Assembly: GCA_963805975.1 (NCBI GenBank)
Contig: CAWDVR010000003.1
Location: 887,255-951,254, forward strand
Direction of reading: 5' to 3'
DNA length: 64,000 nucleotides
Source of the DNA: an uncultured Acidobacteriota bacterium
Lineage (GTDB): Bacteria > Acidobacteriota > Thermoanaerobaculia > Multivoradales > SZUA-115
The position numbers and the translations under genes were made by a program. The notes beneath the pieces were generated by a model, which made no database searches, was not told the DNA's origin, and worked only from the letters and a program-made list of their open reading frames with translations. Of the stretch, positions 4,517-29,002 are shown piece by piece (within the stretch, counting starts at the first letter, position 1; the number at the start of each line of letters is the position of its first letter).

Positions 4517-4529
4517 GGAGGCGAGCGCC

Positions 4530-5045
4530 ATGGCGCAGTTCACGGTCAACGCGACCCGATTCGATCCGTACAAGAACTTCAAGTTCCGCGTCAAGTGGGA
4601 TGGCCGCTACGTCGCCGGGATCAGCAAGGTCGGTGCGCTCAAGCGCTCGACCGAGGTGGTGGAGCACCGTGAGGGTGGCGACCCCTCGACCAGCCGCAAG
4701 TCGCCCGGCCGCACCAAGTACGAGGCGATCACCCTCGAGCGCGGCGTGACCCACGACCTCGAGTTCGAGAACTGGGCGAACAAGGTGTGGAACTTCGAGG
4801 GCGGGGCGGGCCTCGAGTCCTCGCTCGCCGACTTCCGCAAGGACGTCATCATCGACGTCTTCAACGAGGCGGGGCAGAAGGCGATCTCCTACAAGGTCTA
4901 CCGCTGCTGGGTGTCGGAGTTCCAGGCCCTGCCGGACCTCGACGCCAACGCCAACGCTGTCGCCATCCAGACGCTCAAGCTCGAGAACGAGGGTTGGGAG
5001 CGCGACGCGGACACTCCGGAGCCGGCGGAGCCGACCTTCCCCTAG
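4530..5045 (+). CDS. Tail tube protein (T4 gp19-like, Afp1/5)
   Basis: RFDPYKNFKFRV, HREGG, KSPGRTKYEAITLERG; follows the sheath with an AAGGAGG RBS. Confidence 0.95.
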   Translation: MAQFTVNATRFDPYKNFKFRVKWDGRYVAGISKVGALKRSTEVVEHREGGDPSTSRKSPGRTKYEAITLERGVTHDLEFENWANKVWNFEGGAGLESSLADFRKDVIIDVFNEAGQKAISYKVYRCWVSEFQALPDLDANANAVAIQTLKLENEGWERDADTPEPAEPTFP

Positions 5046-5048
5046 GGC

Positions 5049-5903
5049 ATGAGCGTCGAGGTCGCCCTACCCGGTGGGTTCGAGCACGGCGGAAGCTGGC
5101 GCCGGCGGGTGGCGCTGCGGCCTCTCTCGGGCCGGGACCAGGCGTTCCTGGCCGACGAGCTCGCCGGTGCCCGGCCGGCGGCCCGCACCACCGCGCTCCT
5201 CGGGCGCTGCGTGACGCTCGATCCGGGCCTGCCGCCGGCGGGCGCAGAGCTGGTGCGCGCGCTCACCATCGGGGACCGCGAGGCGCTGCTCTTGCACCTG
5301 CGCCGGGCGATGCTCGGCGAGCGCCTGTCGGCGGTCGCCACCTGCGCGGCCTGCGGCGAGAAGCTGGACCTGGACCTCGAGGTCGGGAGCCTGCTGCTGC
5401 CGCCCTATCCGCACGAGGGCGCCCTCCACCTGGCCGAGATCGAAGCGCAGGGCCGACGCTACCGCACGACCTTCCGGCTGCCCACGGGCGCCGACCAGGA
5501 ATGGGCGGCGCCGTTCGCCGCCGACCGAGGCGAAGGCTGCGGCCCAGGGCTGCTCGAGCGCTGTGTGCGCTCCGTGGAAGACGAGGCCGGCATTCTTCTC
5601 CCGGGCCTGCCGCCCGCCGTGGCAGAGGCGTTGCCGGAGCTCATGGCCGAGCTCGACCCGCAGGCGGAGATCGAGATCGGCGCCGCCTGCCCGGCCTGCG
5701 GTGTGGGCTCGAGCACGCTCTTCGACGCCGGCCAGTACGTGTGCCAGGAGCTTCTGGAGCAGGGCGACCGCCTGTGGCGCGAGGTCCACCTGCTCGCCTG
5801 GCACTATCACTGGAGCGAGCGCGAGATCCTGCGGCTCTCGGCCACCCAGCGCCGGCGCTACCTTCGCCTGTTGTCCGAGGCACTGGCGGGAGAAGCCGCG
5901 TGA
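5049..5903 (+). CDS. Tail/baseplate assembly chaperone-like protein with C-terminal DUF6760-like motif
   Basis: LTIGDREALLLHLRR, two CxxC pairs, FRLPTGADQ, and EVHLLAWHYHWSEREIL; position directly after the tube gene. Confidence 0.75.
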   Translation: MSVEVALPGGFEHGGSWRRRVALRPLSGRDQAFLADELAGARPAARTTALLGRCVTLDPGLPPAGAELVRALTIGDREALLLHLRRAMLGERLSAVATCAACGEKLDLDLEVGSLLLPPYPHEGALHLAEIEAQGRRYRTTFRLPTGADQEWAAPFAADRGEGCGPGLLERCVRSVEDEAGILLPGLPPAVAEALPELMAELDPQAEIEIGAACPACGVGSSTLFDAGQYVCQELLEQGDRLWREVHLLAWHYHWSEREILRLSATQRRRYLRLLSEALAGEAA

Positions 5904-6054
5904 GCCGCTTCCTGGAGAACCTCGTGCTCCGCGCCGCGGGCCTGCCGGCAGAGATCCGGCCGCGGGCGCTGCCGGAGGCGGCCGAGGCGGGGGAGGGGTG
6001 GAAGGGTTTGCACGAAACGGCTCGGCCCGAAACGGCTGGCACCTCGGAGCCGGG

Positions 6055-6455
6055 CGCCCCTCACCCTAGCCCTCTCCCCGCAAGCGGGGCGAGGGGACCG
6101 GAAAAGGCAAGCTCTCCGCCTTCTGTGGCTGGGCGGGGACGGGGTGAGGGCGGCCTGGAAGCCGCGTGCTTCCTCCTCCGCCCCTCACCCTAGCCCTCTC
6201 CCCGCAAGCGGGGCGAGGGGACCGGAGAAAAGGCAAGCTCTCCGCCTTCTGTGGCCGGGCGGAGACGCCCTCTCCCGCTCGCGGGGGAGGGCCGAGGTGA
6301 GGGTGGCCTGGAACCGCGTGCTTCCTCCGTCGCCCCTCACCCTAGCCCTCTCCCCGCAAGCGGGGCGAGGGGACCGGGAAAAGGCAAGCTCTCCGCCTTC
6401 TGTGGCTGGTCGGGGGCGCACTCTCCCGCTCGCGGGAGAGGGACGGGGTGAGGGG
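6055..6455. repeat. Three tandem units of BoxC-like palindromic repeat (family A)
   Basis: Units start at 6055, 6179 and 6331 with CGCCCCTCACCCTAGCCCTCTCCCCGCAAGCGGGGCGAGGGGACCGG..AAAAGGCAAGCTCTCCGCCTTCTGTGG, each followed by an inverted ...GGTGAGGG arm. Confidence 0.9.
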
Positions 6456-6490
6456 ATAGCTCACGAAACCGCGAGCCCACCGACTCGTCC

Positions 6491-6599
6491 CCCAGGTCCT
6501 TCGCTTCGCTCAGCACGACAGGTTCGAGCGCTGGAGCCTCCGGGGGCGGATGCGAAGACCGCCCGCCCTCGTCATCCTGAGCGCAGCGAAGGACCTGGG
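6491..6599. repeat. Inverted pair of family B palindromes (GTCATCCTGAGCG...GAAGGA type)
   Basis: CCCAGGTCCTTCGCTTCGCTCAGCACGAC ... GTCATCCTGAGCGCAGCGAAGGACCTGGG. Confidence 0.8.
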
Positions 6600-6858
6600 C
6601 GGGGGAGCGCCAACGAGCACACGCCGGCCCGCCTGCTGCCCGCACCCGCCCCACTTGTGGAGCTTTCTTCGCCGAAGGCCGCGGCGCCCGCACCACCGCG
6701 CATCGAGGTCCACATCGGCCGGGTGGAGCTCCGCGCACCACAGCCCGTGATCGAACCCGAGCCCGAGCCTGCTTTCTATCGTCCACCGCGCGGCTTCGAA
6801 GGCCTGGCCCTGGCGCGGCGTCACCTGGACCGGCGCTGGTACTAGCGAGGCTTGCGCT

Positions 6859-8094
6859 ATGGCCAACTTCATCGCCCTCGCCGGAGTGAGCCTCACGCTG
6901 CGGAACCTGCTCGAGGACCGCATGGAGCAGCCGGTGGACGTCACCATCGCGCCGCCGGACGTGCAGGTCTCGGGCTTCACCGAGCGCCGCGTGAACCTCT
7001 ACCTCTACCAGTTGGCCGAGAACCCGCACTTGAAGAACCAGGAGCTTCCGGGCCAGGGCCATGCCGGCACCCTCGGCCGGCCGCCGCTGTCGCTCGACCT
7101 CAACTATCTGGTGACCGCCTACGGAGCGAGCGAGACCGGTCCGCATGCGGACCTCGATGCGCAGCAGATCCTGGGCGACGTGATGCGCGCTTTCCACGAG
7201 TTCCCGCTGATCACCCCCGGTCTCCACCGCGGGGACCTGCCGGCCAACCCGCAGATCCTCGACGTGTCCCTCTTGGGCGAGCTCGAGCGCATCAAGATCA
7301 CCCTCCATCCCACCAGCGTCGACGAGCTGTCGAAGATCTGGACGGCGCTGCCGCAGGCGAGCTTCCGCCGCTCCGTGGCCTACAACGTGTCCGTGGTGCA
7401 GATCGACAGCCGCCGGCGCCGCGCCAGCGTGCTGCCGGTGCAGGAGCGCCGGGTCTACGCCTTCCCGATCGCCATGCCGCGCATCACCGAGGTGCGGCGC
7501 GATCCGGCGTTCCACGACGTCGAGGGAGGGATCACGGAGGTTGGGGACACGATCCTCGTCCTGGGTGAGAATTTGGGCGCAACGGGCACGCGGGTGCGCA
7601 TCGGCGAGGTGCTGGTGGCGGTGGCCGCGCCGCAGGCGACCCGCCTGGAGCTGATCGTGCCGGCCGGCCTGCCCGCCGGTGTGGCGCCGTTGCAGGTGGT
7701 GCAGGATCTGCTGCTCGCCGGCGCGCCCGGTGACCCGCCGGTACCGCACCGGGGAAGCGAGTCGAACACCGTGCCGCTCCTGGTGCTGCCGCGGCTCACC
7801 CTGCTCAACCCGGCGGCAGGCAGTGCGGGAGACTTGATCACCGCGACGGTCTCGCCGCCGGCCCTCGCCCGCCAGAGGAAGAGCCTGCTGCTCGGCCCGT
7901 TCGAGATCCCGGCGCTGCCGGTCGAGCAGGACGAGCCGCCCTCCGCCACGGTCCAGTTCCGGTTGCCCGCGGCAGCAGCGGCTCTGCCGGCCGGCAACTA
8001 TCTCGCCCGCGTGCGCATCGATGGTGCCGAGAGCCGCCTCGACTTCGACACCAACACCATGCAGTTCACCGGCCCGAGCTTCACGGTGATTTGA
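6859..8094 (+). CDS. DUF4255 / Pvc16-Afp16-like tail cap protein with C-terminal Ig-like (IPT/TIG) extension
   Basis: MANFIALAGVSLTLRNLL, VNLYLYQLAEN, PPLSLDLNYLVTAY, LSKIWTAL, SVAYNVSVVQI; beta-rich tail with GENL. Confidence 0.88.
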   Translation: MANFIALAGVSLTLRNLLEDRMEQPVDVTIAPPDVQVSGFTERRVNLYLYQLAENPHLKNQELPGQGHAGTLGRPPLSLDLNYLVTAYGASETGPHADLDAQQILGDVMRAFHEFPLITPGLHRGDLPANPQILDVSLLGELERIKITLHPTSVDELSKIWTALPQASFRRSVAYNVSVVQIDSRRRRASVLPVQERRVYAFPIAMPRITEVRRDPAFHDVEGGITEVGDTILVLGENLGATGTRVRIGEVLVAVAAPQATRLELIVPAGLPAGVAPLQVVQDLLLAGAPGDPPVPHRGSESNTVPLLVLPRLTLLNPAAGSAGDLITATVSPPALARQRKSLLLGPFEIPALPVEQDEPPSATVQFRLPAAAAALPAGNYLARVRIDGAESRLDFDTNTMQFTGPSFTVI

Positions 8095-8096
8095 CG

Positions 8097-10312
<2,216 letters not shown>

Positions 10313-10316
<4 letters not shown>

Positions 10317-10513
10317 GCACGCCCTTCGAGGACAGCCTCGCCGCGGCGCTCCGGGCGCGGTTCGGCGCCGGCGAGGCGCTGCGGCGCTTCGCCGACCTGC
10401 ACCTGGACCAGCTCACGGTCGACCTGCCGGCGGGCACCGACGCGGTGGATCACGGCGCGCTGGCGGACGCCATCGCCACCGCTCTCGACGACCTGCTGCG
10501 GGGTGAAGCATGA
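10313..10513 (+). CDS. Small eCIS hypothetical protein (66 aa)
   Basis: GTG overlaps the ATPase stop and its TGA overlaps the next ATG; LHLDQLTVD motif. Confidence 0.65.
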
Positions 10514-12393
10514 GCGCGGTACAACGGCAGAGCGCGGCCAAGCAGGCGAGCGCGCAGCAGACCGCGCAGGAGCGCCCGCCGGTGCGCGAGGCGGAGCCGG
10601 AGGACGCGCTCGGCACCCTCCTCGGCTTGCAAGCGGGCTTCGGCAACCAGGCGGTGAAGCGCGCCGGGGACGCCTGCCCCAACCTCGCCGCCTGCCCCAC
10701 CGGCGGCGCGTGCCACGAGTGCGCTCAGAAGGCGGCGAGCGGGAATGGAGTGGAGCACGCCGGGGCGAGTGGTGGCCCGGCCCCTCGTGAGGCCGCCCCC
10801 GCCCAGATCCTTCGCTCCGCTCAGGATGACAGTGTCGAGACGGCTTCCAGCCCCGATGTCATCCCGAGCGCAGCGAGGGATCTGGAGGCTGGGGACACCG
10901 CTGCGGCCGAGACCCCGGGCTCCGCTCAGAGCACTGCCTTCCTAGTCGACGACCCCGCGAGCGCCACCGAGCCGGCCCAGATGTCCAAGGAGCTGTTCCT
11001 TTCCGAGCTGCGATCGCAGGTCTCCGTCGCGGCCGAGGAAGAGCTCGCCGGCACCGGCCGCACGGCCCGCGACTGCCCGTGGATCGAGCACTGGTTCGGC
11101 TACTTCGAGCACCGCAGCGCCGAGCGGGTGGAGAGCGCCCTGCGGCGGTACGCACCGGAGACCACGACGGCCCAAAGCGCCGGTGAGTACATGTCTCCGG
11201 TGGTCGAACGGGTGCGGCGGTCCGTGGCGCACTGGGCCGCGACCGGCGAGGTCACCGGGGTGCCCGCCGAGGGCCTGGCGGCGGGGGCCGCGGGCGCGAC
11301 GCTCGCGAGCGCCAGCCAGGGCCTCTCGGCCGGGCTGATGTTCAAGGCGCGCGAAGGCGGCGCCCGCACCCCGCAGGACCTGCACACCCTACAAGCCCGC
11401 CTCGGAGAGGGCGAGGCGCTCGACGCCCCCGTGCGCTCGCGCATGGAGTCGGCCTTCGGGGCGAGCTTCGGCGGCGTGCGCGTGCACCGCGACGCCAACG
11501 CCGCGGTGCTCTCTTCCGAGGTCAACGCCCGTGCCTTCGCGCTCGGCGACCACATCGCCTTCGGCGCCGGCGAGTACCGGCCCGGCAACGTGGTGGGAGA
11601 TGCGCTCATCGCCCACGAGCTGGCGCACGTGATGCAGCAGCAGGGAAGCGGCGCGGGCGGCGGGGGGAGCGCCGACTACGGCTCGCTGGAGAAGGATGCG
11701 GACCGTGGAGCCGCGGGCGCGGTGGCCTCGCTGTGGGCGGGGGCGCGCGAGGGCCTAGCGAACCTGGCGGCCAGGACCGGCCCTGCGCTGCGCTCGGGGT
11801 TGCGGTTGCAGCGGTGCAACAGCCCGGCTCCCCGTACCGACGGCTGTGTCACCGGAGATCTGACGGCGAAGACCTCCGGAGCCTTCCAGGGCGGGTGGGA
11901 TGCCAACAGCTATCTGACGGGAGGAGCTAACTGGGGGGCTGTGGCCAGTCCCGGAACGGCCGGCCGAGACGGGCGCGGATACAAAGTTCAGACCACGGCT
12001 CCCTACTCGGGTCAGGAGAATCTTGGCGTCGCTCAGACCATGACTCACACTGGAGCGAACCAAGCCTTTCTAGATGGCACCGCCGGCTACCTGGGTCTGC
12101 CTGCTGGAAGCGTCACGAATGGTACGACTTACAACGAACCAGTGCTGGATGCCGGTGACCCCTTTGCCGCCAGACCGTGGATCCTTCGCTACCAGGATGG
12201 AATCGTGTCCTTCTGTGATGTCCCCAGGGCTGGAGCAGGAGAGCAAGGCAGCATCGACTTCGTCACCAGCTTCCACTCGAGGGGTGCGCCGTGCTCGAAG
12301 CGCTGGTATTCCGTTACCTGGAGGTGGACGATCGACTTCACGCCCGGCAATGATGTGAATACAGTCACGCAGCAGTCCCAATCGTCCGGCTGA
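10510..12393 (+). CDS. DUF4157 (eCIS core) protein with variable C-terminal candidate effector domain
   Basis: LQAGFGNQAV leader, Cys cluster, RMESAFGASFGGVRVH..ARAFALGDHIAF..LIAHELAHVMQQ, then RSGLRLQRC and an A/T-richer 3' domain. Confidence 0.88.
   Translation: MSAVQRQSAAKQASAQQTAQERPPVREAEPEDALGTLLGLQAGFGNQAVKRAGDACPNLAACPTGGACHECAQKAASGNGVEHAGASGGPAPREAAPAQILRSAQDDSVETASSPDVIPSAARDLEAGDTAAAETPGSAQSTAFLVDDPASATEPAQMSKELFLSELRSQVSVAAEEELAGTGRTARDCPWIEHWFGYFEHRSAERVESALRRYAPETTTAQSAGEYMSPVVERVRRSVAHWAATGEVTGVPAEGLAAGAAGATLASASQGLSAGLMFKAREGGARTPQDLHTLQARLGEGEALDAPVRSRMESAFGASFGGVRVHRDANAAVLSSEVNARAFALGDHIAFGAGEYRPGNVVGDALIAHELAHVMQQQGSGAGGGGSADYGSLEKDADRGAAGAVASLWAGAREGLANLAARTGPALRSGLRLQRCNSPAPRTDGCVTGDLTAKTSGAFQGGWDANSYLTGGANWGAVASPGTAGRDGRGYKVQTTAPYSGQENLGVAQTMTHTGANQAFLDGTAGYLGLPAGSVTNGTTYNEPVLDAGDPFAARPWILRYQDGIVSFCDVPRAGAGEQGSIDFVTSFHSRGAPCSKRWYSVTWRWTIDFTPGNDVNTVTQQSQSSG
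10803..10885. repeat. Family B palindrome pair inserted in-frame in the DUF4157 gene
   Basis: CCAGATCCTTCGCTCCGCTCAGGATGAC ... GTCATCCCGAGCGCAGCGAGGGATCTGG; translated as QILRSAQDD...VIPSAARDL. Confidence 0.8.
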
Positions 12394-12410
12394 CAGGTGG
12401 GAGAGGATTC

Positions 12411-12758
12411 GTGGTGGAGACATCGAAGCGGCTCGAGGGTCTTTTGCATCGGCTTCGAGAGCTCAAGGTCGAAGGAGTGGGCCGTGGTGGGCCCTTCCTG
12501 GGAGTCGTTCACAACGAGGTTACGCGTGAGCTTCTGGCAGAAGGAATGGGAATCGTGCCCTTGCTTCTCGAACGGATCGGGAGCAGTGAGCTCGATGAGA
12601 CGATCTTCCTCGTCTTTCTCCTCCGTGAGCTGCGATCCATCAATGCTAAGGGTGCAATAGAAAAACTGCTGGATTCCCCTAGATTTCGTGGCAAGCCGCG
12701 AGACCTGACGCTCGAGATGCAGGTGCAGTTCTACCTGCGTGATGTGGACTCGTGGTGA
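12411..12758 (+). CDS. Small helical protein, candidate immunity/partner of the upstream effector
   Basis: 115-aa ORF with a GGAGAGG RBS, directly after the effector and sharing its atypical codon usage. Confidence 0.65.
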   Translation: MVETSKRLEGLLHRLRELKVEGVGRGGPFLGVVHNEVTRELLAEGMGIVPLLLERIGSSELDETIFLVFLLRELRSINAKGAIEKLLDSPRFRGKPRDLTLEMQVQFYLRDVDSW

Positions 12759-12799
12759 GTCGCTGGACAGCCGAGCGCCGCAGACTGGAGGCGATCAAA

Positions 12800-13999
12800 A
12801 TGGAGGCGAGAAGCACACCCTTTCGCGGATCGGCTGTGTGGCTGCAGGCAAGGGCCTCGAGTGGTCTAAAGCGCTTGGCTCGGCCTGGGCTCCGCTTCGG
12901 CTCGCGCTCCATCTCCTCCTTCCACCTCTGCGGCATCGTCGGCTGGGTCACCGGCATCGCGCTCGCCTGCTTCCTCACCGCGCACCAGGGCCTGCCGCTG
13001 TGGGTCACGGGGGTCTTGGCCGTGGGGTCGATCGTCACCTTCCTCGCCCTGGTGATGGCGATGAAGATCGCCACCGGCGAGGAGAACATCGTCTACTACC
13101 ACCACGAGATCGCGGTGGTGGCGGTGTCGGCGCTCACGCTGTGGCTCCTCGGCCAGCCGGTGCTGCCATACCTCGACGCGGTGCTCCTGGGGCTCGGGCT
13201 GTTCCTCGCCTGCGGGCGCGTCGGCTGCCTGATGGTGGGCTGCTGCCACGGGAGGCCGCATTCCTGGGGCGTCTGCTACGGCCACGAGCACGCCGCGGCC
13301 GGCTTCACGCCGCACCTGGTGGGCGTGCGGCTCTTCCCCATCCAGCTCGTCGAATCGGTCTACGTGCTGGCGACAGTCGCGGTGGGCACGGCGATGGTGC
13401 TCCGCGGCGCCGCGCCGGGCTCGGCGCTGGCTTTCTACTCGATCGCCTACGGCCTGGCCCGATTTTCCTTCGAGTTCTTCCGCGGCGACGCAGCGCGGCC
13501 CTACCTGCGTGGCTTCTCCGAGGCGCAGTGGACCACGCTGGGTCTCATGATCGGCACCGCCGCGGCCGAGCTGGCTGGCTTCCTACCGCTCGCCTGGTGG
13601 CACGTGGGCGCCGCCGCGGCGCTGGCCGTGGCGATGGTCTTCGTGGGCCTGGGCGAGAACCGGCAGCGAGCCCTGTTCCGGGCCCGGCACATGGAACAGC
13701 TCGCGGCCCTGGCCCAGGCGGCGAGCCAGGAAGCCGGGGCCGGTGGCGCGGTGGCGATCGGCCAGACCGAGCTCGGCATCCAGCTCTCGGCGAGCCGCGT
13801 GCACGAGGAGGCGGGAGAGCTCGAGGTGCTGGGGTTCTCCTCGCCCCGTGAGCCCCTGCCGGACCGCGCCACCTCCCGCCTCACGCGGCTGCTCGCCCGG
13901 CTGCGGCGCGTGGAGAGGCCGGAGCGGGTCCTGGCCTCGAGCGGTGGCGTGGTGCACCTCGTCCTGCCGGCGCCGGCCGCCGGAGCGGAGAGCCCGTGA
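12800..13999 (+). CDS. Divergent prolipoprotein diacylglyceryl transferase (Lgt)-family membrane protein
   Basis: Multiple TM helices; GRVGCLMVGCCHG, FPIQLVES and YGLARFSFEFFRGD match Lgt signature blocks; soluble C-terminal extension. GGAGG before ATG 12800 (alternative start GTG 12752). Confidence 0.8.
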   Translation: MEARSTPFRGSAVWLQARASSGLKRLARPGLRFGSRSISSFHLCGIVGWVTGIALACFLTAHQGLPLWVTGVLAVGSIVTFLALVMAMKIATGEENIVYYHHEIAVVAVSALTLWLLGQPVLPYLDAVLLGLGLFLACGRVGCLMVGCCHGRPHSWGVCYGHEHAAAGFTPHLVGVRLFPIQLVESVYVLATVAVGTAMVLRGAAPGSALAFYSIAYGLARFSFEFFRGDAARPYLRGFSEAQWTTLGLMIGTAAAELAGFLPLAWWHVGAAAALAVAMVFVGLGENRQRALFRARHMEQLAALAQAASQEAGAGGAVAIGQTELGIQLSASRVHEEAGELEVLGFSSPREPLPDRATSRLTRLLARLRRVERPERVLASSGGVVHLVLPAPAAGAESP

Positions 14000-14808
14000 A
14001 ATCGCGTGCGCTCGACCCCTCGCTCGAGCCCGCCTCGAAGCGCCCCGAGCCTGCGGTGCCGAGCCGCGCTCCGGTGGAGCCGGAAGGTGCCGAGAAGGCA
14101 CTGTTCGACGCGGGAGCCATGGGCAACCAGGCATTTCAGCAGCGCAATCGGCCGGGGGCCTCGGCTCGCGAGGGTGTGGTGGACATGTCGCCCGCCGCCG
14201 GCGGGGCCCCGGCGGCCTCGCCCTCTGCGGCGACCTCGCCGGGACCGCCTGTCGTCGACGGGATCACAATCGTTGACAGCCCCGCGGGTGCCGTCACCGG
14301 GTTCCCTACCATCCTCGGCCGCGCCAGCCACGACGTGCCGGGCCCGTTCAACGATCAGGCAACCGGCGAGTGCCGGAACTCCCATCAGGTCCACTTCCAC
14401 CTCGCAAGCGGCAGCTCCGGCAACCTGACGCCGCGGCGCGAGGTGAAGCGATCAGTGTTCCAGGCTGGGGCCGAGCACAGGAAACCGACCGATCTGCCGG
14501 GACAGCCCGGTGGGTTCGGTGGCACGAGGACAGGCCCGGACGGGCCAGGACCGCACGTCCTGCAACCTTCGGCCGACCTGATCGCCATCGCCGATGCCCC
14601 CGGAACACTGGCTCTCACGCCCGCCCAATATCCGTTCGTCTATTCAGCGGCCTTCACGCTCACGGTGGCCAGCGGCGGGCTCGACATCGCCCGCACCAGG
14701 TACTACGTCTTCATCGAGAAGAACAGCGCCACCAGTATCCCCAACGAAGAGAACACGGTCTTCCCGATCGAGAAGAAAGATCTCATCAACAATAGGGACC
14801 TCCCATGA
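13996..14808 (+). CDS. Candidate eCIS cargo: GNQA leader plus unknown beta-rich domain (no DUF4157)
   Basis: GTGA coupling to the Lgt-like gene; first 50 aa colinear with those of the next gene. Confidence 0.75.
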   Translation: MKSRALDPSLEPASKRPEPAVPSRAPVEPEGAEKALFDAGAMGNQAFQQRNRPGASAREGVVDMSPAAGGAPAASPSAATSPGPPVVDGITIVDSPAGAVTGFPTILGRASHDVPGPFNDQATGECRNSHQVHFHLASGSSGNLTPRREVKRSVFQAGAEHRKPTDLPGQPGGFGGTRTGPDGPGPHVLQPSADLIAIADAPGTLALTPAQYPFVYSAAFTLTVASGGLDIARTRYYVFIEKNSATSIPNEENTVFPIEKKDLINNRDLP

Positions 14809-14833
14809 CGCTCGCCCAAATCCGTTTCCACTC

Positions 14834-16063
14834 ATGAAATCCCAATCGTCGGACACCTCGCGCGAGCCCGCCGCGAAACGCTCCGAGCCTGCCGTGCCGA
14901 GCCGCGTCCCGGCGCAAGCCGGGGGCCCGGACAAGGCGCTGAACGAGGCCGGCGCGATGGGCAACCAGGCGTTCCAGCGGCGCGGGCGAGCCTCCAAGGA
15001 AGCCGGGGGATCAGCCTCAGCCGCCGCCGAGCCGGCGCCGGCACCGCTGACGCGGGACGATCCGGAGGCGATCCTCGCCCGGCTGGGCGAGGGCAAGCCG
15101 CTCGACTCCGAGGCCCGCCGCCGGATGGAGGCGGTCTTCGGTGAGGACTTCTCCGGCGTGCGCCTGCACGACGACGCCACCGCCGCGCTCCTGGCCTCGG
15201 ACTTCGACGCCCGCGCCTTCACCGTCGGCGAGCACGTGGCCCTGGGCGGTGGTGGGCTCGAGCCCGGTACCGCGGTGGGCGATGCCGTGCTGGCCCACGA
15301 GCTGGCGCACGTGCTGCAGCAGCGCGGGGGGGCCCCCGGCGCGGAGAAGGAGGACGCGGCTGGCAGCAGTTTCCTCGAACGTGACGCCGATCAGGCCGCG
15401 GCGTCGGCCACGGCCTCCCTCTGGACGGGCGCCCAGGGTGCCGGCACCGGCATCACCCCGGTGGACAAGCCGAGCGGACGGTCCGGGCTGCGCCTGTCAC
15501 GCTGCGATGGTGGCAAACCGAAGCCGGCCCCGCCGGCCAAGAAGTCGGTGACCGTGAAGCGCTCCAAGCTGCATGGCAGCACCTACGACATCGACTCGGG
15601 GTTCGACTACGCCAACACCAAGGTCTACAACCAGGTGAACGTGGAGGTGAAGAAGGGGAAGGAGGAGAACCTCGACGAGGCGAAGACGACACCCATCCTC
15701 GGCGACGACCTGATCCTCGAAGAGTTCAGCGACCCCAAGGCGCCGACCGAAGAGGAGAAGAAGCTGTTCAAGGTCAACCAGGCCACGGACGAGATCACCG
15801 CCTACTTCGTCAAGGGCCTCTCCGCCGGCAGCACCGGCGAGCAGTTCCGACCGGCCCACGGCCACAGCTTCGTCGGACTGGTGGTGAGCAACGACGGCAA
15901 CGACCCGACCTTCGCTCACGAGCTCGGCCACATCCTGCTCGACGACGGCGGGCACGACGTGCCGGACGACACCTACCTGATGTTCGGCTCCAAGACCGCC
16001 GGCAAGCACAAGCTCACCGAGGATCAGAAGACCAAGATCCTGGCGAGCAAGTTCGTGAAGTGA
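14834..16063 (+). CDS. DUF4157 protein with C-terminal zinc metallopeptidase (metzincin-like) domain
   Basis: Start ATG 14834 chosen by homology to the 13996 leader; VLAHELAHVLQQ; RSGLRLSRC; C-terminal TFAHELGHILLDDGGH...YLM. Confidence 0.85.
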   Translation: MKSQSSDTSREPAAKRSEPAVPSRVPAQAGGPDKALNEAGAMGNQAFQRRGRASKEAGGSASAAAEPAPAPLTRDDPEAILARLGEGKPLDSEARRRMEAVFGEDFSGVRLHDDATAALLASDFDARAFTVGEHVALGGGGLEPGTAVGDAVLAHELAHVLQQRGGAPGAEKEDAAGSSFLERDADQAAASATASLWTGAQGAGTGITPVDKPSGRSGLRLSRCDGGKPKPAPPAKKSVTVKRSKLHGSTYDIDSGFDYANTKVYNQVNVEVKKGKEENLDEAKTTPILGDDLILEEFSDPKAPTEEEKKLFKVNQATDEITAYFVKGLSAGSTGEQFRPAHGHSFVGLVVSNDGNDPTFAHELGHILLDDGGHDVPDDTYLMFGSKTAGKHKLTEDQKTKILASKFVK

Positions 16064-16076
16064 GGGCGAGAAGAGA

Positions 16077-16974
16077 ATGGTGACCCCGGCCCCCGGCTCG
16101 CTGCAACTCGCCCTGTCCGTGGATCGCGAGTCCTTCTCCATCGGCCAGGCGGTGCGGCCGCGGCTGGTGATCCGCAACACGCACGGGCGAGCGCGTGAGC
16201 TTCCCGTCGTTCATCTTCTCGGAGGAGAAGCTGGCGTTCGCGGCGCCTGGTGGGCCCCACCTGCTAGCACCGGATGGCCGCGACCTGCTGGCTCCGTACC
16301 GGCTCACCGCCGCGGTGGCACCGGGGCTCGGTATCGAGGTCGAGCCCGGGAGGGACGAGCACCGCATCCTGCCCCTCTCACGGTTCGCCGACCTGCGACG
16401 GCCCGGCCGGTACCGCTTCTGGCTCGAGCTCCAAGACCATGCGGGGCGGCTCCACGAGAGCAACAGGGTCCCCTTCGAGATCACCGAGGTCGAGTCGGTG
16501 GCGCCAGCCGGGCCGATCGTTCTGAGCCTTCACCTCCCGTCCCCTGCTCCGGCCCCGTACCCCGTCGAGGCCGAGGTGCGCTTCGAGAACCTGTCGCCGG
16601 AACCCGTCGTGATCCTGCGCCCGCAGGAGGACTCGTTCGACGGCTGGGTCAACCCGGCCTATCTCTTCACCGTGACGGACGGGCAGGGCCGGCTGCTGCC
16701 CCCGGCCCCCAGAACCGGCTCGATGGCCGAGCCGGTCTATGACGAGGACGCGTTTCTCCATCTTCCCCCCGGCGGGTCCGCGCTTCTCGATCTCCGCCTG
16801 CCTCTGCTTCCCGACCTTTCCGCCGCCGGGCCGGTTCGGGTTCGGCTGGACTACATCGTCCGCCAGCACGCCGTGGGCAAACTCGGCGTGCTCCTGGAGC
16901 GGCGGGTGATCTGGCCCCGCAACACCTTCGTCGGCAGGCTGGAATCCAACGAGGCTTCCCTTGCGCTCGGCTGA
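16077..16974 (+). pseudogene. Protein with two tandem Ig-like beta-sandwich repeats, one +1 frameshift near 16180-16190; candidate partner of the peptidase effector
   Basis: LQLALSVDRESFSIGQAVRPRLVIRNT continues naturally into GERVSFPSF in the next frame. The two halves end in GRLHESN and GRLESN. Confidence 0.6.
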
Positions 16975-17954: not shown

Positions 17955-18617
17955 ATGCCCTCGGAGTTTCCCAGGAGCCCCAAGCTGCTCAAAGGCGCGC
18001 TGGTGGTCTTCGAGACCGTGGCGCCGGTGCCCACCAATCTCATCGTCTTCCAGTACAACCCGGAGAGCGTGGCGCGGAGCTTCCAGTCCGCGGGCGGCAC
18101 GCGGAGCCGGTCGGGCGGCGCGGACACGGCCCCGGCCCTGCCACCGCTCGAGACCTTCAGCCTCAAGGTGGAGCTCGACGCCGCCGACCAGCTCGAGAAG
18201 CCGGGGAGCAACCCGCTGGCGGTGGCGGTGGGCCTTCATCCCACGCTCGCCGCGCTCGAGCTGCTGCTCTACCCGGCGTCCAGCATGCTGATTCTGAACA
18301 AGGTGCTGTCGCTCGCCGGCTCGGCGCTCTTGACCCCGGCGCGGGCGCCGCTGGTGCTCCTGGTGTGGGGGCCGCTCCGGGTGGTGCCGGTGCGGCTGGC
18401 CTCGATCTCGATCGCCGAGCAGGCGTTCGACACGCTGCTCAACCCGATCCGCGCCGAGGTGACGCTGTCGTTGCGCTCGCTCACCGCGCCCGAGCTGGCG
18501 CAGGCCGGGCCGCCGTTCGACACCCTGGCGATCGTCAACCAGGTGGCGAAGGAAGTGCTGGCGCGGAGCAACCTCTTCAACTCCGCGGCACAGATCGGCG
18601 GACAGATCTCGTTCTAG
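17955..18617 (+). CDS. CIS tube/tube-initiator protein (Afp7 N-terminal-like)
   Basis: PKLLKGAL, IVFQYNPESVARS, LLVWGPLRVVPVRL, EQAFDTLLNPIRAEVTL. Confidence 0.85.
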   Translation: MPSEFPRSPKLLKGALVVFETVAPVPTNLIVFQYNPESVARSFQSAGGTRSRSGGADTAPALPPLETFSLKVELDAADQLEKPGSNPLAVAVGLHPTLAALELLLYPASSMLILNKVLSLAGSALLTPARAPLVLLVWGPLRVVPVRLASISIAEQAFDTLLNPIRAEVTLSLRSLTAPELAQAGPPFDTLAIVNQVAKEVLARSNLFNSAAQIGGQISF

Positions 18618-18643
18618 CGGGCCGTCCACGGCAGGAGGAAGCG

Positions 18644-18919
18644 ATGTTCGACAAGGGAAGCCGATACGAGACCGTGCCGGAGGCGATCCATCGCGATGCT
18701 TCCGGCCGCGAGATCCCCTACAAGCGGCTGCGCAAGCTGCCGTCGCCGGCCTCGGCCACCACGCGCACGGTCGAGCGTGGCGACCGGCTGGACCGCGTCG
18801 CCTACGGGCTCTACCGCGACCCCGAGCAGTTCTGGCGGCTGGCGGACGCCAACGCCGCCACCCGCCCCGAGGAGCTGACCGAGGAGCTGGGCCGGGTGCT
18901 CGCCGTGCCCCTCCTCTAA
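18644..18919 (+). CDS. LysM-like baseplate protein
   Basis: AGGAGG RBS; MFDKGSRY...TVERGDRLDRVAYGLYRDPEQFWRLADAN. Confidence 0.85.
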   Translation: MFDKGSRYETVPEAIHRDASGREIPYKRLRKLPSPASATTRTVERGDRLDRVAYGLYRDPEQFWRLADANAATRPEELTEELGRVLAVPLL

Positions 18920-18928
18920 AGAGCGCTC

Positions 18929-20044
18929 ATGACGCCGATCGCGTTCACGCTGCTCTTCGGCCCCGTGCCCGCGCCACCGGACGTGGTGGAGGCGGTGGAG
19001 GAGATCGAGGTCGAGAGCTCGCTCGAAGAGGCGAGCGTCTTCCGCCTGCGCCTCGCCACCAGCCAGACGGCGATCGGCGACTGGACGCTGCTCGAGCGCG
19101 ACTACTTCCGCCCGCTGCTGCCGCTGTCGATCCGCGTCGGCGGCGGCCTGGGCCTGCCGGAGGCGCTGATCAACGGCTACGTCTCCGGGCTGGAGGCGAG
19201 CTGGGGCGAGGAGCCGGGAACCTCGGTGCTCGAGGTAACGGGAATGGACGCCACCCTCCTAATGAACATGCAGGAGAAGGTGATGCCATGGCCCAACCTA
19301 CCCGACTCCGCGATTGCCGCCGCCGTCTTCGGGCAGTACGCCCTGGTGCCGCGGGTCTCGCCCACCTCGCCGGCGCTGATCGAGCCCGAGGGCACCACCA
19401 CGCAGCGCGGCACGGACATCCGCTTTCTGAAGCAGCTCGCGCGGCGCCAGGGATTCGAGTGCTACGTGCAGCCGGAGCCGGCGACCGGTCTCGACCAGGG
19501 CTTCTTCCAGCGCCGCCCGCCGCCGCTGGGGCTGCCGCAGGCGGTGCTGAACGTGGCCGCGGGGCCAGAGACCAACGTCACGGGCTTCTCGGTGCACTAC
19601 GAGATGACCCGGCCCACGACCGCCGTGGCGGCCGGGCTGGACGTGGCCACCAAGGCGATCGTGCCGATGCCGGTGCCGGTTGCGACCGAGCTGCCGCCGG
19701 CGGGCCTCGAACCGGCGCTCACCCGCGTGCTGCCACCGGGGATCGTGCGCCCGGCGGGCCTGGGTCTCGCGACGGCGGCCGAGCTGCAGCCGGCGGTGGC
19801 GGCGATCGTCAACGAGTCGAGCTGGGCGGTGGTGGCGCAAGGCAGCACGGGGCCGGAGGTGGGCATCCTGCGGCCCGGTGGCTACGTCAACGTGCGCGGC
19901 GCCGGCCGGCTGTTCAGTGGCTCGTACTACCTCACGCGGGTGGCCCACTCGATCCGCCGCGACGGCTCGCACACGCAGCAGTTCTCGGCGCGCCGCAACG
20001 CCGTGGGGCTTACCGGCACCGAGATCTTCCTGGATCTGCCCTGA
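18929..20044 (+). CDS. Baseplate hub protein (late-control D / gp27-like, Afp8 N-half)
   Basis: [55 protein letters not shown]. Confidence 0.85.
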
Positions 20045-20063
20045 TCCCCTGGGAGTGAGCTCG

Positions 20064-20777
20064 ATGCCGCCACAGAGCACCCCCGCCTTCGAGCCGCCGG
20101 CCGACACCACGCAGCGCTTCTACGGCAAGTACCGCGGCCTGGTGGCGATCAACGTCGACCCGCTCTCCCGCGGGCGCTTGAAGGCCATGGTGCCGGAGGT
20201 GCTGGGCGAGGTGCCGTCCTCCTGGGCCCTCCCCGCCTCGCCCTACGCCGGCATGGGCGCCGGCTTCTTCGCCGTGCCGCAGGTGGGCGCCGGGGTGTGG
20301 ATCGAGTTCGAGGCCGGCGACCCCTCGCGACCGATCTGGAGCGGCGCCTGGTGGGCGAGCGGCGAGCTGCCGATGACCGAGAAGGGCGTGCCGGTGCAGC
20401 CCACGGTGAAGATCCTGAGGAGCGACTTCGGCCTGCTGGTGGCGCTCGACGACCTGGCGCAGACCATCACGCTGGCGGACGGCATGGGCCTCAATCTGAT
20501 GACCATCAAGGTGCTCGAGGGCACGGTCGAGGTGAAGAGCGCGGTGCGCGTGGTGCTCGAGGCGCCGCTCATCCAGCACGGGCAGGGCGCCGCGCACCCG
20601 GCGGTGTTCGGCGACCAGCTCCTCACCTATCTGACGCAGATCGTCACCATGTTCAACACCCACGTCCATCCGGGCGAGCTGGCGGCCGGCTTCCTGCCGG
20701 TGACGCCGGCGCCGCCGGTGGCGCCGATGCCGCCGCCCACCCCGGCGCTGCTCTCGATCAAGGTGCTGGTGGAGTAG
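20064..20777 (+). CDS. Baseplate spike protein (gpV/gp5 OB-fold)
   Basis: [45 protein letters not shown]; C-terminal NTHVHP. Confidence 0.9.
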
Positions 20778-20781
20778 GGCG

Positions 20782-21057
20782 ATGGCGAACGAGCTCAAGG
20801 CGGGCGGTCTCGACGATTTCGGCTCCAGCATGGCGCAGGCCATGGAGCAGGCCCTGAACACCATCCTGGTGGCCGAGGGCAAGCCGCCGCTCGACACTTC
20901 CGACACCGCCGAGGTGCGCGACCGGCGCACGCTCTTCGTGGCCATCGCCCAGGGCGTGGTCAATCACCTGGTGGCCAACCACGACGCCTTCGACGTCACC
21001 GAGAACGACGGCACGACGGCCCTCGGGAACCATCGCGTGGTGATCCGGAAGGAATAG
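20782..21057 (+). CDS. Hypothetical protein between spike and gp25
   Basis: 91-aa in-operon ORF with typical codon usage; no PAAR motif. Confidence 0.7.
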   Translation: MANELKAGGLDDFGSSMAQAMEQALNTILVAEGKPPLDTSDTAEVRDRRTLFVAIAQGVVNHLVANHDAFDVTENDGTTALGNHRVVIRKE

Positions 21058-21066
21058 GACGGCGCG

Positions 21067-21444
21067 ATGAACGACCCGCTCGCTCGCCCCTACCTCGACG
21101 TGCCGTTCCACTTCGACGGCCGGGGCCGGACCGCCACCACGGACCGGGACGACCACATCCGCGACATGATCTTCTCCGTCCTCTTCACCGATCCCGGCGA
21201 GCGGGTCAACCGGCCGGACTTCGGCTGCGGCATCCGCTCGCTGCTCTTCATGCCGGCCTCGGACGCGCTGGCCGCCGCCACCCAGGTGCTGGTCAAGGGC
21301 TCGCTCCAGAAGTGGCTCGAAAACGAGATCCAGGTCGAGAAGGTCGAGGTCAAGGCCGAGGACTCGAAGCTCCTGGTGACCGTCGCCTACGTCCACCGCG
21401 CGAGCGGCCAGGGCCGGGTCGAGGTGTTCAGTGCGTCCCTCTAG
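21067..21444 (+). CDS. GPW/gp25 baseplate protein (Afp9)
   Basis: DHIRDMIFSVLFTDPGERVNRPDFGCG. Confidence 0.93.
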   Translation: MNDPLARPYLDVPFHFDGRGRTATTDRDDHIRDMIFSVLFTDPGERVNRPDFGCGIRSLLFMPASDALAAATQVLVKGSLQKWLENEIQVEKVEVKAEDSKLLVTVAYVHRASGQGRVEVFSASL

Positions 21445-21468
21445 CGGGTTTGCCGGGCGGGGAACGGC

Positions 21469-24045
21469 GTGAGCGCCCTCGAGCTCCCGGTCTGCCGGGA
21501 CGACGAGCAGCGGCGGGCGGACGTCCTCGCCCATCCCACGGCCAACGGCATCGACTTCGTGGAGGTCGCCGCCGCCGACCACCGCCAGCTCACGGTGACG
21601 TTCCTGAAGCCGCTGCCGCCGGCCAACGCGCTCGATCCCGCGGACCCGGACGACGCCTACGGCATCACCGCGGACCTCGCCCGCATCACCATCGAGGGCG
21701 GCGCCCGCATCGTGGGCATCACGGTGGTGGCGGCCGAGCGCCAGGCGGACGGCCGCCTCGCCCTCACGACCAGCGCCCCCGGCGACTACTCGCGCTACCG
21801 GCTCACCATCTCGGTGCCGGCCCTCGACCCGGTGCTCGACACCGTCGAGCTCAACTTCATGGCCACCTGCCCGGTGGACTTCGACTGCCGGCAGCCCGCC
21901 TACTGCCCCCCGGGCGAGGTGGAGGGGCCGCAGCTCGACTACCTGGCCAAGGACTACGGCAGCTTCCGCCGCATGCTGCTCGAGCTGGCCTCGGGCCTCA
22001 ACCCCAAGTTCAGCGAGCGCAACCCTGCGGACCTCGGCGTGGCGCTGGTGGAGCTCCTGGCCGCGACCGGCGACCAGCTCTCCTACTTCCAGGACGCGGT
22101 GGCCAACGAGGCCTACCTCGAGACGGCGCGGCAGCGCCTCTCGGTGCGGCGGCACGCGCGGCTGGTCGACTACCGCATGCACGACGGCCGCAACGCCTGG
22201 ACCTGGGTCCACCTGGCGGTCAACGTGCCCCACAACCTCGGCAACCCGGCCCTGCCGCAGCCGCCGGTCGCCTTCGTCACGCAGCTCTCGGCGCCGCTCG
22301 CCGGCACCATGCAGGCGCCGGGCACGGTGATCGACCCCGCTCTGATCACCGCCGAGCGGCTGGAGAGGGACCCCGCGCTCGCCGGCGCGGTGGTCTTCGA
22401 GCTGGCGCACCCGGTGGCGCTCGACCCGCGCCACAACGCCATCCGCCTCCACGCCTGGGGCAACGAGGAGTGCTGCCTGCCCGCGGGCACGCGCGTGGCC
22501 TACCTCTACTCGGTGCCGGACGGCACCCACGCCGTGCGGCCGGCGCTCGCCAAGGGCGACTTCCTGCTGCTCGAAGAGGTGAAGGGCCCGGCGACCGGCC
22601 TCGCCGCGGACGCCGACCCGGCGCGGCGGCAGGTGGTGCGGCTGGACGAGGACCCGCAGCCCACCGAGGACCCCGTGTATCAGGACGCGCTGGCGGGCGA
22701 CGCCTTGCAGCGCCGGGGCGCCCTCGACCCACCGCTGCCGCTGCTGCGTGTGCGCTGGCGGCGGGAGGACGCGCTCACGGCGCCCTTCTGTATCTCCACC
22801 CGCCGGCCGGACGGCGAGCGCCACCGCAACGTATCGCTCGCCCGCGGCAACATGGTGCTGGCCGACCACGGCCTGACGGTGGCGGGGGAGGAGCACCTCT
22901 TCGACCCGCCTGTGGCGGCCGATCAGCCGTTCCGCCTGCCGCTCGCGCGCCGGCCGCTCACTTTCGAGCTGCGGCCGGCCGGCGAGAGCTTCGGCGCCGC
23001 TCTCTCCCGCACCGACCTCGCCGGCGAGCCGCGGCAGGCGCAGCCGGCGGTGGCGGTGGTGGCCGAGTTCCCCACCGGCCCGGAGGACTGGACCGCGGTC
23101 CCGGACCTGCTCGACAGCCCGCCCCTCGCCCGCCACTTCGTGGCCGAGACCGGCAACGACGGCGGCGCCGTGCTGCGCTTCGGCGACGGCGAGCACGGCC
23201 GCGAGCCGGCCGGTGCCACGCGCCTCGTGGCGAGCTACCGGGTGGGCAACGGCGCGGCGGGCAACGTGGGCCGCGAAGCCTTCGCCCACCTCGTGCTGGC
23301 GGGCGGCGCGCCGTGGCTCGACCAGGTGCGGAACCCGCTCGCCGCCGCCGGCGGCACTCCACCGGAGACTCTGGAGGAAGTGCGGCGCCGGGCGCCCCAG
23401 GCCTTCCGCGCCGAGCAGTTCCGGGCGGTCACCGAGGCGGACTACGCCGCCGCCGCCAAGAAGATGCCGGAGGTGGCCGGCGCCGTGGCCACCTTCCGCT
23501 GGACGGGGAGCTGGTACACGGTGTTCGTCGGCGTCGACCCGCGCGACCCGGCGGACCTGCTGCGCCAGGGCCGCGGCCTCGCCCGCCTTTCGCCGCGGCT
23601 CGAAGAGCGCGTGCGCGCCTTCCTCACCCGCTATCGCCTGGCGGGCTACGACCTCGAGATCCGGCCGCCGCGCTTCGTGCCGCTGGCCGTCGCCATCGAC
23701 CTCTGCGTCTCGCGAGACCACTTCCGGGGCGACGTGGCGCGGGCGGTGGCCGAGGCGCTGTCGAGCCGCCGGCTGCCCGACGGCCGCCTGGGCTTCTTCC
23801 ACCCGGATCACTTCACCTTCGGCCAGCCGGTCTACCTGTCGCGCCTCTATGCCGCGGTGGAGGCGGTCGAGGGTGTCGAGTCGGCGGAGGTGCGCACCTT
23901 CCGCCGCGCCGGCGCACGCGACAACGGCGAGCTGGAAAAAGGCGTGCTGCCGATCGGGCCCTGGGAGATCGCCCAGCTCGACAACGATCCCAACTTCATG
24001 GAGAACGGCGTGCTCGAGCTCAAGCCCCGGGGAGGGAAGGCATGA
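21469..24045 (+). CDS. Baseplate J-like assembly protein 1 (Afp11-like)
   Basis: LDYLAKDYGSFRR, YFQDAVANEAYLETAR, LRFGDG..G, YRVGNG, RAVTEADY. Confidence 0.92.
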   Translation: MSALELPVCRDDEQRRADVLAHPTANGIDFVEVAAADHRQLTVTFLKPLPPANALDPADPDDAYGITADLARITIEGGARIVGITVVAAERQADGRLALTTSAPGDYSRYRLTISVPALDPVLDTVELNFMATCPVDFDCRQPAYCPPGEVEGPQLDYLAKDYGSFRRMLLELASGLNPKFSERNPADLGVALVELLAATGDQLSYFQDAVANEAYLETARQRLSVRRHARLVDYRMHDGRNAWTWVHLAVNVPHNLGNPALPQPPVAFVTQLSAPLAGTMQAPGTVIDPALITAERLERDPALAGAVVFELAHPVALDPRHNAIRLHAWGNEECCLPAGTRVAYLYSVPDGTHAVRPALAKGDFLLLEEVKGPATGLAADADPARRQVVRLDEDPQPTEDPVYQDALAGDALQRRGALDPPLPLLRVRWRREDALTAPFCISTRRPDGERHRNVSLARGNMVLADHGLTVAGEEHLFDPPVAADQPFRLPLARRPLTFELRPAGESFGAALSRTDLAGEPRQAQPAVAVVAEFPTGPEDWTAVPDLLDSPPLARHFVAETGNDGGAVLRFGDGEHGREPAGATRLVASYRVGNGAAGNVGREAFAHLVLAGGAPWLDQVRNPLAAAGGTPPETLEEVRRRAPQAFRAEQFRAVTEADYAAAAKKMPEVAGAVATFRWTGSWYTVFVGVDPRDPADLLRQGRGLARLSPRLEERVRAFLTRYRLAGYDLEIRPPRFVPLAVAIDLCVSRDHFRGDVARAVAEALSSRRLPDGRLGFFHPDHFTFGQPVYLSRLYAAVEAVEGVESAEVRTFRRAGARDNGELEKGVLPIGPWEIAQLDNDPNFMENGVLELKPRGGKA

Positions 24046-26699: not shown

Positions 26700-26704
26700 G
26701 AAAA

Positions 26705-28993: not shown

Positions 28994-29002
28994 GGGGACA
29001 TC

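Follow-up and report, generated by a model that had tools for sequence, protein, structure and literature searches.

Locus organization

The analysed DNA, referred to below as the window, is a 64,000-nucleotide stretch of contig CAWDVR010000003.1 from an uncultured Acidobacteriota bacterium (assembly GCA_963805975.1), in which a complete operon for an extracellular contractile injection system (eCIS) holds a block of cargo genes between its upstream and downstream structural genes. Two of the cargos carry a DUF4157 domain that is joined to a variable C-terminal domain through a conserved junction ending in cysteine, and between them lies a gene for a divergent paralogue of prolipoprotein diacylglyceryl transferase (Lgt); on balance, this dedicated enzyme probably faces the cytoplasm and lipidates an internal lipobox of the eCIS cargos. 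The coordinates, the cysteine codons and both junction motifs given in a preliminary description of the window were confirmed in the sequence. The features that bear on this reading, all on the forward (+) strand, are as follows.

2543..10316, +, upstream eCIS genes: sheath, tube, baseplate protein, Pvc16 and AAA ATPase
10510..12393, +, cargo 1, 627 amino acids: disordered leader, helical N-domain, DUF4157, cysteine junction and a 192-residue C-terminal domain without assignment
10939..11268, +, N-domain of cargo 1, about 110 residues, four-helix; no Pfam family
11419..11649, +, DUF4157/eCIS_core of cargo 1: zincin core with the HELAH motif
11683..11817, +, junction 1: third zincin helix, basic amphipathic segment and RSGLRLQR-C; cysteine codon TGC at 11815-11817
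12800..13999, +, Lgt paralogue, 399 amino acids, with eight predicted membrane helices and predicted inverted orientation
13661..13969, +, clade-specific soluble alpha/beta C-terminal domain of the Lgt paralogue, about residues 288-390, predicted on the active-site face; no family match
14834..16063, +, cargo 2, 409 amino acids: leader, DUF4157 (15098-15331), junction and HExxH metallopeptidase-like C-terminal domain; no N-domain
15374..15505, +, junction 2: RSGLRLSR-C; cysteine codon TGC at 15503-15505
17955..32350, +, downstream eCIS genes: second tube, hub, spike, baseplate J-like proteins and DUF6519 protein

The Lgt paralogue

The paralogue matches the Pfam family LGT, PF01790 (E = 4.7e-17; 62.6 bits against a cut-off of 24.9), and stays under the NCBIfam equivalog cut-offs (25 bits against 118.9 for TIGR00544), the last of which is also not reached by the housekeeping copy of the same genome (94.7). 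Its best 120 homologues are 42-100% identical to it over most of its length. The AlphaFold model has a predicted local distance difference test score (pLDDT) of 92, and Foldseek returns E. coli Lgt (5azb; E = 5e-5; template-modelling score 0.41/0.56) as its sole match at E <= 0.001; a PDB sequence search with the profile of the clade gave no match. In comparison with ordinary Lgt, the paralogue has one further helix, the eighth, and in addition a soluble C-terminal domain, for which an Atlas search gave no usable match. In a FastTree phylogeny, 43 clade sequences form one group with a support of 1.0 and a stem of 1.16 substitutions per site, placed among the Lgts of Cys-Cys type.

In E. coli Lgt, a network of R143, E202, Y235, R239, E243 and R246 binds and activates phosphatidylglycerol, and the HGGL motif and arm-2 are tied to peptide binding and specificity (PMC4728403, PMC13251419); H103 of HGGL has been proposed as the catalytic base. 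The window enzyme keeps this network as R140/E185/Y217/R221/E225/R228. The equivalents of E. coli R143, G154, E202, Y235, R239, E243 and R246 are invariant in 61/61 aligned clade proteins, and all six residues of the R/E/Y/R/E/R set are found in 122 of the 131 locus members, four of the remainder being incomplete proteins. The H103-G-G-L acceptor motif is lost in the window enzyme, which reads Y100-H-H-E without Gly-Gly; in the clade, HGGL and the arm-2 region are remodelled to E-x-x-I/V-Y-Y-H-H-E, with a shortened arm-2 region. As read from the alignments, kept donor residues together with a remodelled acceptor site are what an active enzyme that has turned to a different acceptor should show.

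According to the positive-inside rule, the face of a membrane protein that is rich in lysine and arginine is the cytoplasmic one. Among the 61 clade proteins, which make up half of the 120 homologues, lysine and arginine number 16.2 on the active-site face versus 1.9 on the opposite face, or 6.7 versus 1.6 when the internal loops alone are counted; the comparison-set Lgts give 3.9 versus 13.0. The reversed bias is present in 61/61 clade proteins and in 81/81 locus-derived members, and the opposite direction is found in 32 of the 33 comparison proteins, the lone exception being itself a clade copy. The eighth helix is predicted to bring the basic N-terminus, the active site and the soluble C-terminal domain onto one face. 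Read with the positive-inside rule, the reversed bias predicts an active site that faces the cytoplasm; that of E. coli Lgt is placed on the periplasmic side (PMC4728403). The predicted inversion would answer the question of how an Lgt-type enzyme reaches cytoplasmic cargos that have no signal peptide.

The preliminary description had raised the question of whether the paralogue is the only lgt of its genome. A separate housekeeping gene is present, since the genome also encodes a canonical lgt (E = 1e-46; G000:C1:488448) and Lsp, and a separate canonical lgt was likewise found in 5/5 diverse carriers tested.

The cysteine junction and cargo architecture

The junction follows the consensus P-x-L-(R/K)-S-G-L-x-L-(Q/S)-R-C. 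The 153 junctions almost always have Pro(-11), Leu(-9), Ser(-7), Gly(-6), Leu(-5) and Leu(-3), together with Gln or Ser at -2. Arg occupies position -1 in 139 of them; the other 14 have Ser, Gly, Ala or Lys there, and in 13 the residue is Ser, Gly or Ala, as in true lipoboxes. The resulting L(-3)-(Q/S)(-2)-R(-1)-C is lipobox-shaped, and the cysteine is followed by a polar tether of Ser, Gly, Lys and Pro. The 29 residues before the cysteine are basic and moderately amphipathic, with a net charge of +4.8 and a helical moment above that of shuffles in 123/152 cases; no signal-like hydrophobic or transmembrane-grade stretch precedes the cysteine, the best 12-residue hydropathy averaging 1.26. The cysteine is residue 436 of cargo 1 and residue 224 of cargo 2, and neither protein has an N-terminal signal peptide with a [LVI][ASTVI][GAS]C lipobox. 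The earlier statement that the cargos have neither signal peptide nor lipobox is borne out for the signal peptide, as no hydrophobic signal segment is present; for the lipobox it was too strong, given the shape of L-(Q/S)-R-C.

A plain (V/I/L)QR stands at the same place in ordinary DUF4157 cargos, so the special feature is the cysteine with its upstream motif, not QR. The comparison with plain LQR/VQR that had been proposed for the junction agrees with this: the plain form is generic, and the cysteine junction is tied to enzyme-positive genomes. A loose six-frame pattern gave 7 matches in the genome, among which just the two cargos read SGLRLxRC, and the junction is therefore not a product of chance; it was found in none of the genome's four remaining DUF4157 proteins. 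These four orphans (G000:C1:445406, C2:474417, C5:409051 and C6:159001), which have a common extension RVRNPFG.G.AVVQDP, are a second cargo class.

The cysteine and its upstream motif are fixed while the downstream domains form 74 clusters, and strong matches of a junction profile have the cysteine in 151/154 cases, the profile having been built from cysteine-selected segments. The N-domain contains no junction, and a search with it thereby provides a non-circular test. The 150 best proteins of an N-domain-only search hold 161 copies, 15 incomplete and 146 scorable; the cysteine pattern was found in 137 of the 146 (a few perhaps at another cysteine), and eight of the nine others show a cysteine junction by eye. 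Just 9 of the scorable copies came from loci already in the analysis. The conservation of the cysteine in orthologues, on which the preliminary description depended, thus holds in an independent protein set.

The N-domain itself is a unit of four helices and about 110 residues (pLDDT about 95) that precedes 126/138 DUF4157 domains of cysteine type versus 1/86 others, and its profile matches 1639 proteins at the 50% cluster level. It has two partly conserved cysteines. Cargo 1 carries it, and its absence from cargo 2 means that it is no absolute requirement. Its structural neighbours form weak rows (Z 4.4-4.7, residues 1-104), some of which are presumably acyl-carrier-binding LYRM proteins, for which no sequence support was found; a DUF885 match from the Atlas was not accepted, its recognition score being below threshold. 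Many cargos have two tandem DUF4157 domains, an ordinary one of QR type followed by the N-domain with one of cysteine type (L009 6708-9917, L024, L041, L045, L082), and some proteins hold two full modules of N-domain, DUF4157 and cysteine.

In the DUF4157 domain, the ligands H226, E227, H230 and E251 are invariant in 108 sequences, and the core has a zincin fold with VgrG2b as its best structural match (Z 8.5; root-mean-square deviation 4.5; 139 aligned residues). A Foldseek search with the cargo model gave no match at E <= 0.001. The junction is disordered in this monomer model (pLDDT < 50), which is weak evidence on contact with the zincin either way.

Distribution and co-occurrence

The loci come from scans that gave 80 of 121 genome loci and 80 of 486 metagenome loci; among the 80 metagenome loci, 28 are ordinary-Lgt loci and served as controls. 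The clade records span Acidobacteriota, Chloroflexota, cyanobacteria, Planctomycetota, Desulfobacterota, Pseudomonadota, Actinomycetota, Gemmatimonadota and Bacteroidota, with Calothrix, Roseateles, Mitsuaria, Variovorax and Kibdelosporangium as cultured carriers.

The preliminary description had proposed that the enzyme clade co-occurs with DUF4157 proteins of cysteine type, and in each of three genome samples the positive genomes for both partners are identical. Among 401 genomes of the same phylum, the enzyme is found in 4 and the junction in 4, with DUF4157 in 57; among 191 genomes of another class, in 3 and 3, with DUF4157 in 47; and among 61 relatives, in 4 and 4, with DUF4157 in 33. Enzyme and junction together thus reach about 1% of genomes in the samples of 401 and 191. 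The samples overlap slightly, and 17-115 candidates were scored per genome. No junction was found in the DUF4157-positive, enzyme-negative genomes of the three samples (0/53, 0/44 and 0/29, genome G023 being included in the 53).

At locus level, 69 clade loci are flanked by 3 kb or more on each side, and 64 of them contain the cysteine junction. Of the five that do not, three have cysteine cargos on other contigs, and the link therefore survives the loss of adjacency; the other two are L126, with a truncated enzyme, and L120, with a junction that lacks the cysteine. Two further genomes have short flanks, one with junctions elsewhere and the other being G599, which is discussed below. When 30 DUF4157 loci were read directly, the cysteine junction appeared solely in three, all in enzyme-positive genomes; in the ordinary-Lgt loci, many of them short, DUF4157 or eCIS genes were found in 0/28. 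A structural eCIS gene lies within about 10 kb in 40 of the 61 clade loci of at least 15 kb, two or more such genes in 30, and none nearby in 21. The clade, whose restriction to eCIS loci had also been considered, is eCIS-linked and not confined to structural operons.

Passenger domains and putative immunity genes

From about 147 distinct C-terminal domains, 130 were scanned, cut at 400 residues, and 27 gave a Pfam match: 9 are transglutaminase-like, 10 zinc-peptidase-like (one of them scoring as ATLF), 2 deaminases, 1 EndoU, 3 peptidoglycan-related and 2 other. Small genes downstream of the cargos differ according to the domain, and by eye most of them encode no signal peptide; by analogy, they resemble polymorphic toxin-immunity pairs and are regarded as putative immunity genes.

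Proposed mechanism and alternative explanations

In the proposed mechanism, the inverted paralogue would move diacylglycerol from phosphatidylglycerol to the junction cysteine before the cargo is loaded. The basic amphipathic segment would stand in for a signal peptide, docking on the inner membrane face and presenting the internal lipobox, and the N-domain and the extra C-terminal domain of the enzyme may serve recognition or lipid shielding, a role that is a guess in the case of the N-domain. Loading by the AAA ATPase and injection would be followed by a cut just before the cysteine, possibly by the DUF4157 zincin; the toxin domain would then be anchored by a lipid at its N-terminus, as a mature lipoprotein is, and made without Sec or Lsp. 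In the boldest version, the N-domain would hide the lipid during loading and DUF4157 would replace Lsp, perhaps freed from a cysteine switch by lipidation.

The steps of this mechanism differ in strength. Lipid transfer by the paralogue to the junction cysteine, the central supposition of the preliminary description, is likely, the pairing being supported by the co-occurrence, the conservation of the cysteine, the catalytic residues and the housekeeping lgt. The weakest step is the cut: that DUF4157 cleaves its own chain after the junction Arg is possible and rather doubtful, because other residues can replace the Arg and ordinary cargos, too, carry plain (V/I/L)QR. Autoproteolytic release of cargo by DUF4157 was already proposed in 2012 (PMC3482391), and no demonstration of it was found in the available text; loading into the tube and ejection have been shown only for AlgoCIS Cgo1/2 (PMC8894135). 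The full chain, including cleavage and delivery as membrane-anchored toxins, is more tentative again.

Several observations weigh against the proposal. Tyr stands at the position of H103 in the clade enzyme, a replacement that many ordinary Lgts share. The added pair of histidines in YHHE is dispensable, both being missing in five loci with cysteine cargos. Arg at -1 and Gln at -2 fall outside the canonical lipobox (PMC4728403). The toxicity of AlgoCIS Cgo1 is independent of the metalloprotease motif (PMC8894135), and DUF4157 is dispensable for the loading of an ordinary cargo (bioRxiv 10.64898/2026.05.27.728243). The route of a diacylated chain from the membrane into the tube is a difficulty, and 2 deaminases and 1 EndoU among the 27 assigned passengers have no obvious use for a membrane anchor. 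L120 has the enzyme and a Gln in place of the junction cysteine, and G599, where the enzyme lies at the end of a contig, yielded no junction. Most positive genomes were already among the training loci; G452, G578 and probably G623 are outside them, and the cysteine is present in all three. Finally, the DUF4157 domains of cysteine type form a single lineage (split support 0.88), as does the enzyme clade (1.0), so what the counts show is a stable partnership and not repeated independent origins.

All of the evidence from the enzyme and the motif would also serve an explanation in which lipidation acts inside the producer, either by parking the cargo or particle on the inner membrane or by aiming the toxin at the producer's own membrane as intracellular contractile injection systems do, and no lipid-anchored effector would arrive in a target cell. 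No diacylglycerol would then have to pass through the tube, 21 of the 61 long clade loci lack a structural eCIS gene nearby, and the cargo of an intracellular Streptomyces contractile injection system moves to membranes (bioRxiv 10.1101/2025.11.06.686954). It is nevertheless considered unlikely, since the cysteine is the first residue of the toxin-side segment and is followed by a lipoprotein-like tether, so that a cut at the usual junction would leave the lipid on the toxin, and since domain-matched putative immunity genes follow many cargos, as for weapons against neighbours.

Quite improbable is a role of the cysteine as a switch or structural ligand, acting on the DUF4157 zinc or on the cysteines of the N-domain, with the Lgt-like protein as a membrane dock or trigger for which lipid transfer would not be required. 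Arg-Cys-Gly is the commonest form of the junction (Gly at +2 in 39/153) and resembles the propeptide switch of matrix metalloproteinases; the zinc ligands are invariant, and the N-domain offers its two partly conserved cysteines. Such a switch leaves unexplained both the invariant phosphatidylglycerol-binding network and the fact that ordinary DUF4157 cargos do without the cysteine; in the monomer model, the junction is not ordered on the zincin, which speaks weakly in either direction. Hitch-hiking, in which enzyme and cargo subfamily would be one inherited cassette and the enzyme would act on a structural protein of the injection system or in lipid metabolism, is improbable to a similar degree: both partners are single lineages and usually adjacent, and some Bacteroidota enzymes lie among structural genes with no cargo nearby, but the same Bacteroidota genomes keep cysteine cargos on other contigs, the cysteine and its upstream motif are fixed across the 74 downstream clusters, and the junction was found in none of the searched DUF4157-positive, enzyme-negative genomes.

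Relation to known systems

Bacterial S-diacylglycerylation is known as an outer-face, signal-peptide-dependent reaction. The paralogue shares with E. coli Lgt (5azb) the fold, the GR signature, the R143/E202/Y235/R239/E243/R246 set and a cysteine acceptor with Leu at -3; it differs in its predicted opposite orientation, its eighth helix, its soluble C-terminal domain and YHHE for HGGL, and it is not the housekeeping copy. Unlike a substrate of E. coli Lgt, the putative substrate of the paralogue is an internal sequence without a signal peptide, in most cases with Arg at -1. In RTX toxins, an operon-encoded acyltransferase of HlyC type lipidates the toxin in the producer cytoplasm before export; HlyC, unlike the paralogue, is a soluble, unrelated enzyme with an acyl-ACP donor, a lysine acceptor and type I secretion. 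Effectors of type III and type IV secretion systems, such as the autoprocessed AvrPphB, expose by processing an end that is lipidated by host enzymes, and it is in this reliance on the host that they differ. The lipocone enzyme Skillet-1, predicted to lipidate GS lipobox-like sequences (bioRxiv 10.1101/2025.01.14.632903), is likewise a dedicated neighbour enzyme proposed for a non-canonical lipobox, but it concerns exported proteins and serine and is an unrelated enzyme.

With known DUF4157 cargos, the window cargos have in common a disordered leader, an HExxH...E core, a variable C-terminal domain and a position beside an AAA gene; they differ in the extra helical N-domain, the fixed SGLxLxRC junction and the tie to a modifying enzyme (PMC3482391, PMC8213781, PMC11297309, PMC8894135). 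No mention of Lgt or lipidation was found in the available parts of these four papers, and in part of the supplementary files of Geller 2021 (PMC8213781), pfam01790 is not enriched, with 2 counts in eCIS. VgrG2b of the P. aeruginosa type VI secretion system (6h56, PMC6899460), the best structural match of the DUF4157 core, belongs to the family and is active, depleting membranes of lipoproteins. By analogy, this hints that such zincins can cut near acylated cysteines; unlike the window cargos, VgrG2b is a periplasmic toxin that acts on the lipoproteins of others, not an N-terminal carrier beside its own cysteine.

Literature searches on DUF4157 with Lgt, eCIS with prolipoprotein, and contractile injection with diacylglyceryl transferase, with most subscription papers outside their scope, found no description of such a system. 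If true, lipidation of eCIS cargos by an inverted Lgt would be a new route of modification and a clear instance in which a conserved enzyme of the membrane flips its orientation to change its job, and the long-unexplained DUF4157 domain would gain a precise processing site. It would also provide a soluble peptide substrate for the study of Lgt acceptor binding, which structural work lists as unresolved (PMC13251419).

Neighbouring genes and further observations

Three further features of the cargo block, all on the forward strand, accompany the genes listed above.

12411..12758, +, gene of 115 amino acids after cargo 1, putative cytoplasmic immunity protein, assigned from its position; no family match
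13996..14808, +, cargo-like open reading frame (ORF) overlapping the Lgt stop; no DUF4157 and no junction
16077..16974, +, gene accompanying the cargo-2 domain family, putative immunity; two frames here versus the L003 orthologue

The Lgt ORF starts with ATG, with GGAGG 8 nt upstream, and its stop overlaps the start of the next gene (GTGA, 13996-13999). The translational coupling in the preliminary description is correct as to this overlap and mistaken as to the partner: the coupled gene is the ORF at 13996-14808, which has no junction, and not cargo 2. The leader of this ORF resembles that of cargo 2 (55% over 73 amino acids), being a duplicate of it with 80% nucleotide identity over 133 nt, and its C-terminal domain resembles that of a cysteine-type cargo of L009. 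The orthologous locus L003 has no counterpart of this ORF, which, if expressed, would be a natural unlipidated control.

The gene at 16077-16974 has a frame shift near 16177-16205 relative to the intact L003 orthologue, either a true lesion or an assembly error; its family is immunity-like and in L003 and L107, too, goes with the C-terminal domain family of cargo 2. It is followed at 16961-17860 by a 299-amino-acid gene, methyltransferase-like by eye and without a Pfam match, that recurs next to cargos of the cargo-2 family in several loci.

As regards the enzyme in other loci, that of L120 (8148-11155) keeps the catalytic network with an altered acceptor motif, possibly through decay or a change of specificity. 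In the Bacteroidota loci L068 (9594-12105) and L074 (5897-7168), the enzyme lies among structural genes, in L068 between PAAR-like and gp25-like ones, and its acceptor motif has diverged; the cysteine cargos of both genomes are on other contigs. The idea that loss of the histidines tracks loss of the substrate cysteine was ruled out by the five enzymes without histidines beside cysteine cargos and by the three Bacteroidota exceptions with cysteine cargos on other contigs. An apparent fusion of enzyme and cargo in L003 proved to be an overlapping open frame. One database protein, P0121, joins a cysteine-junction cargo with a transglutaminase-like domain to an Lgt paralogue; it comes from a single contig with a frameshift-like linker, may be an artefact and is given little weight.

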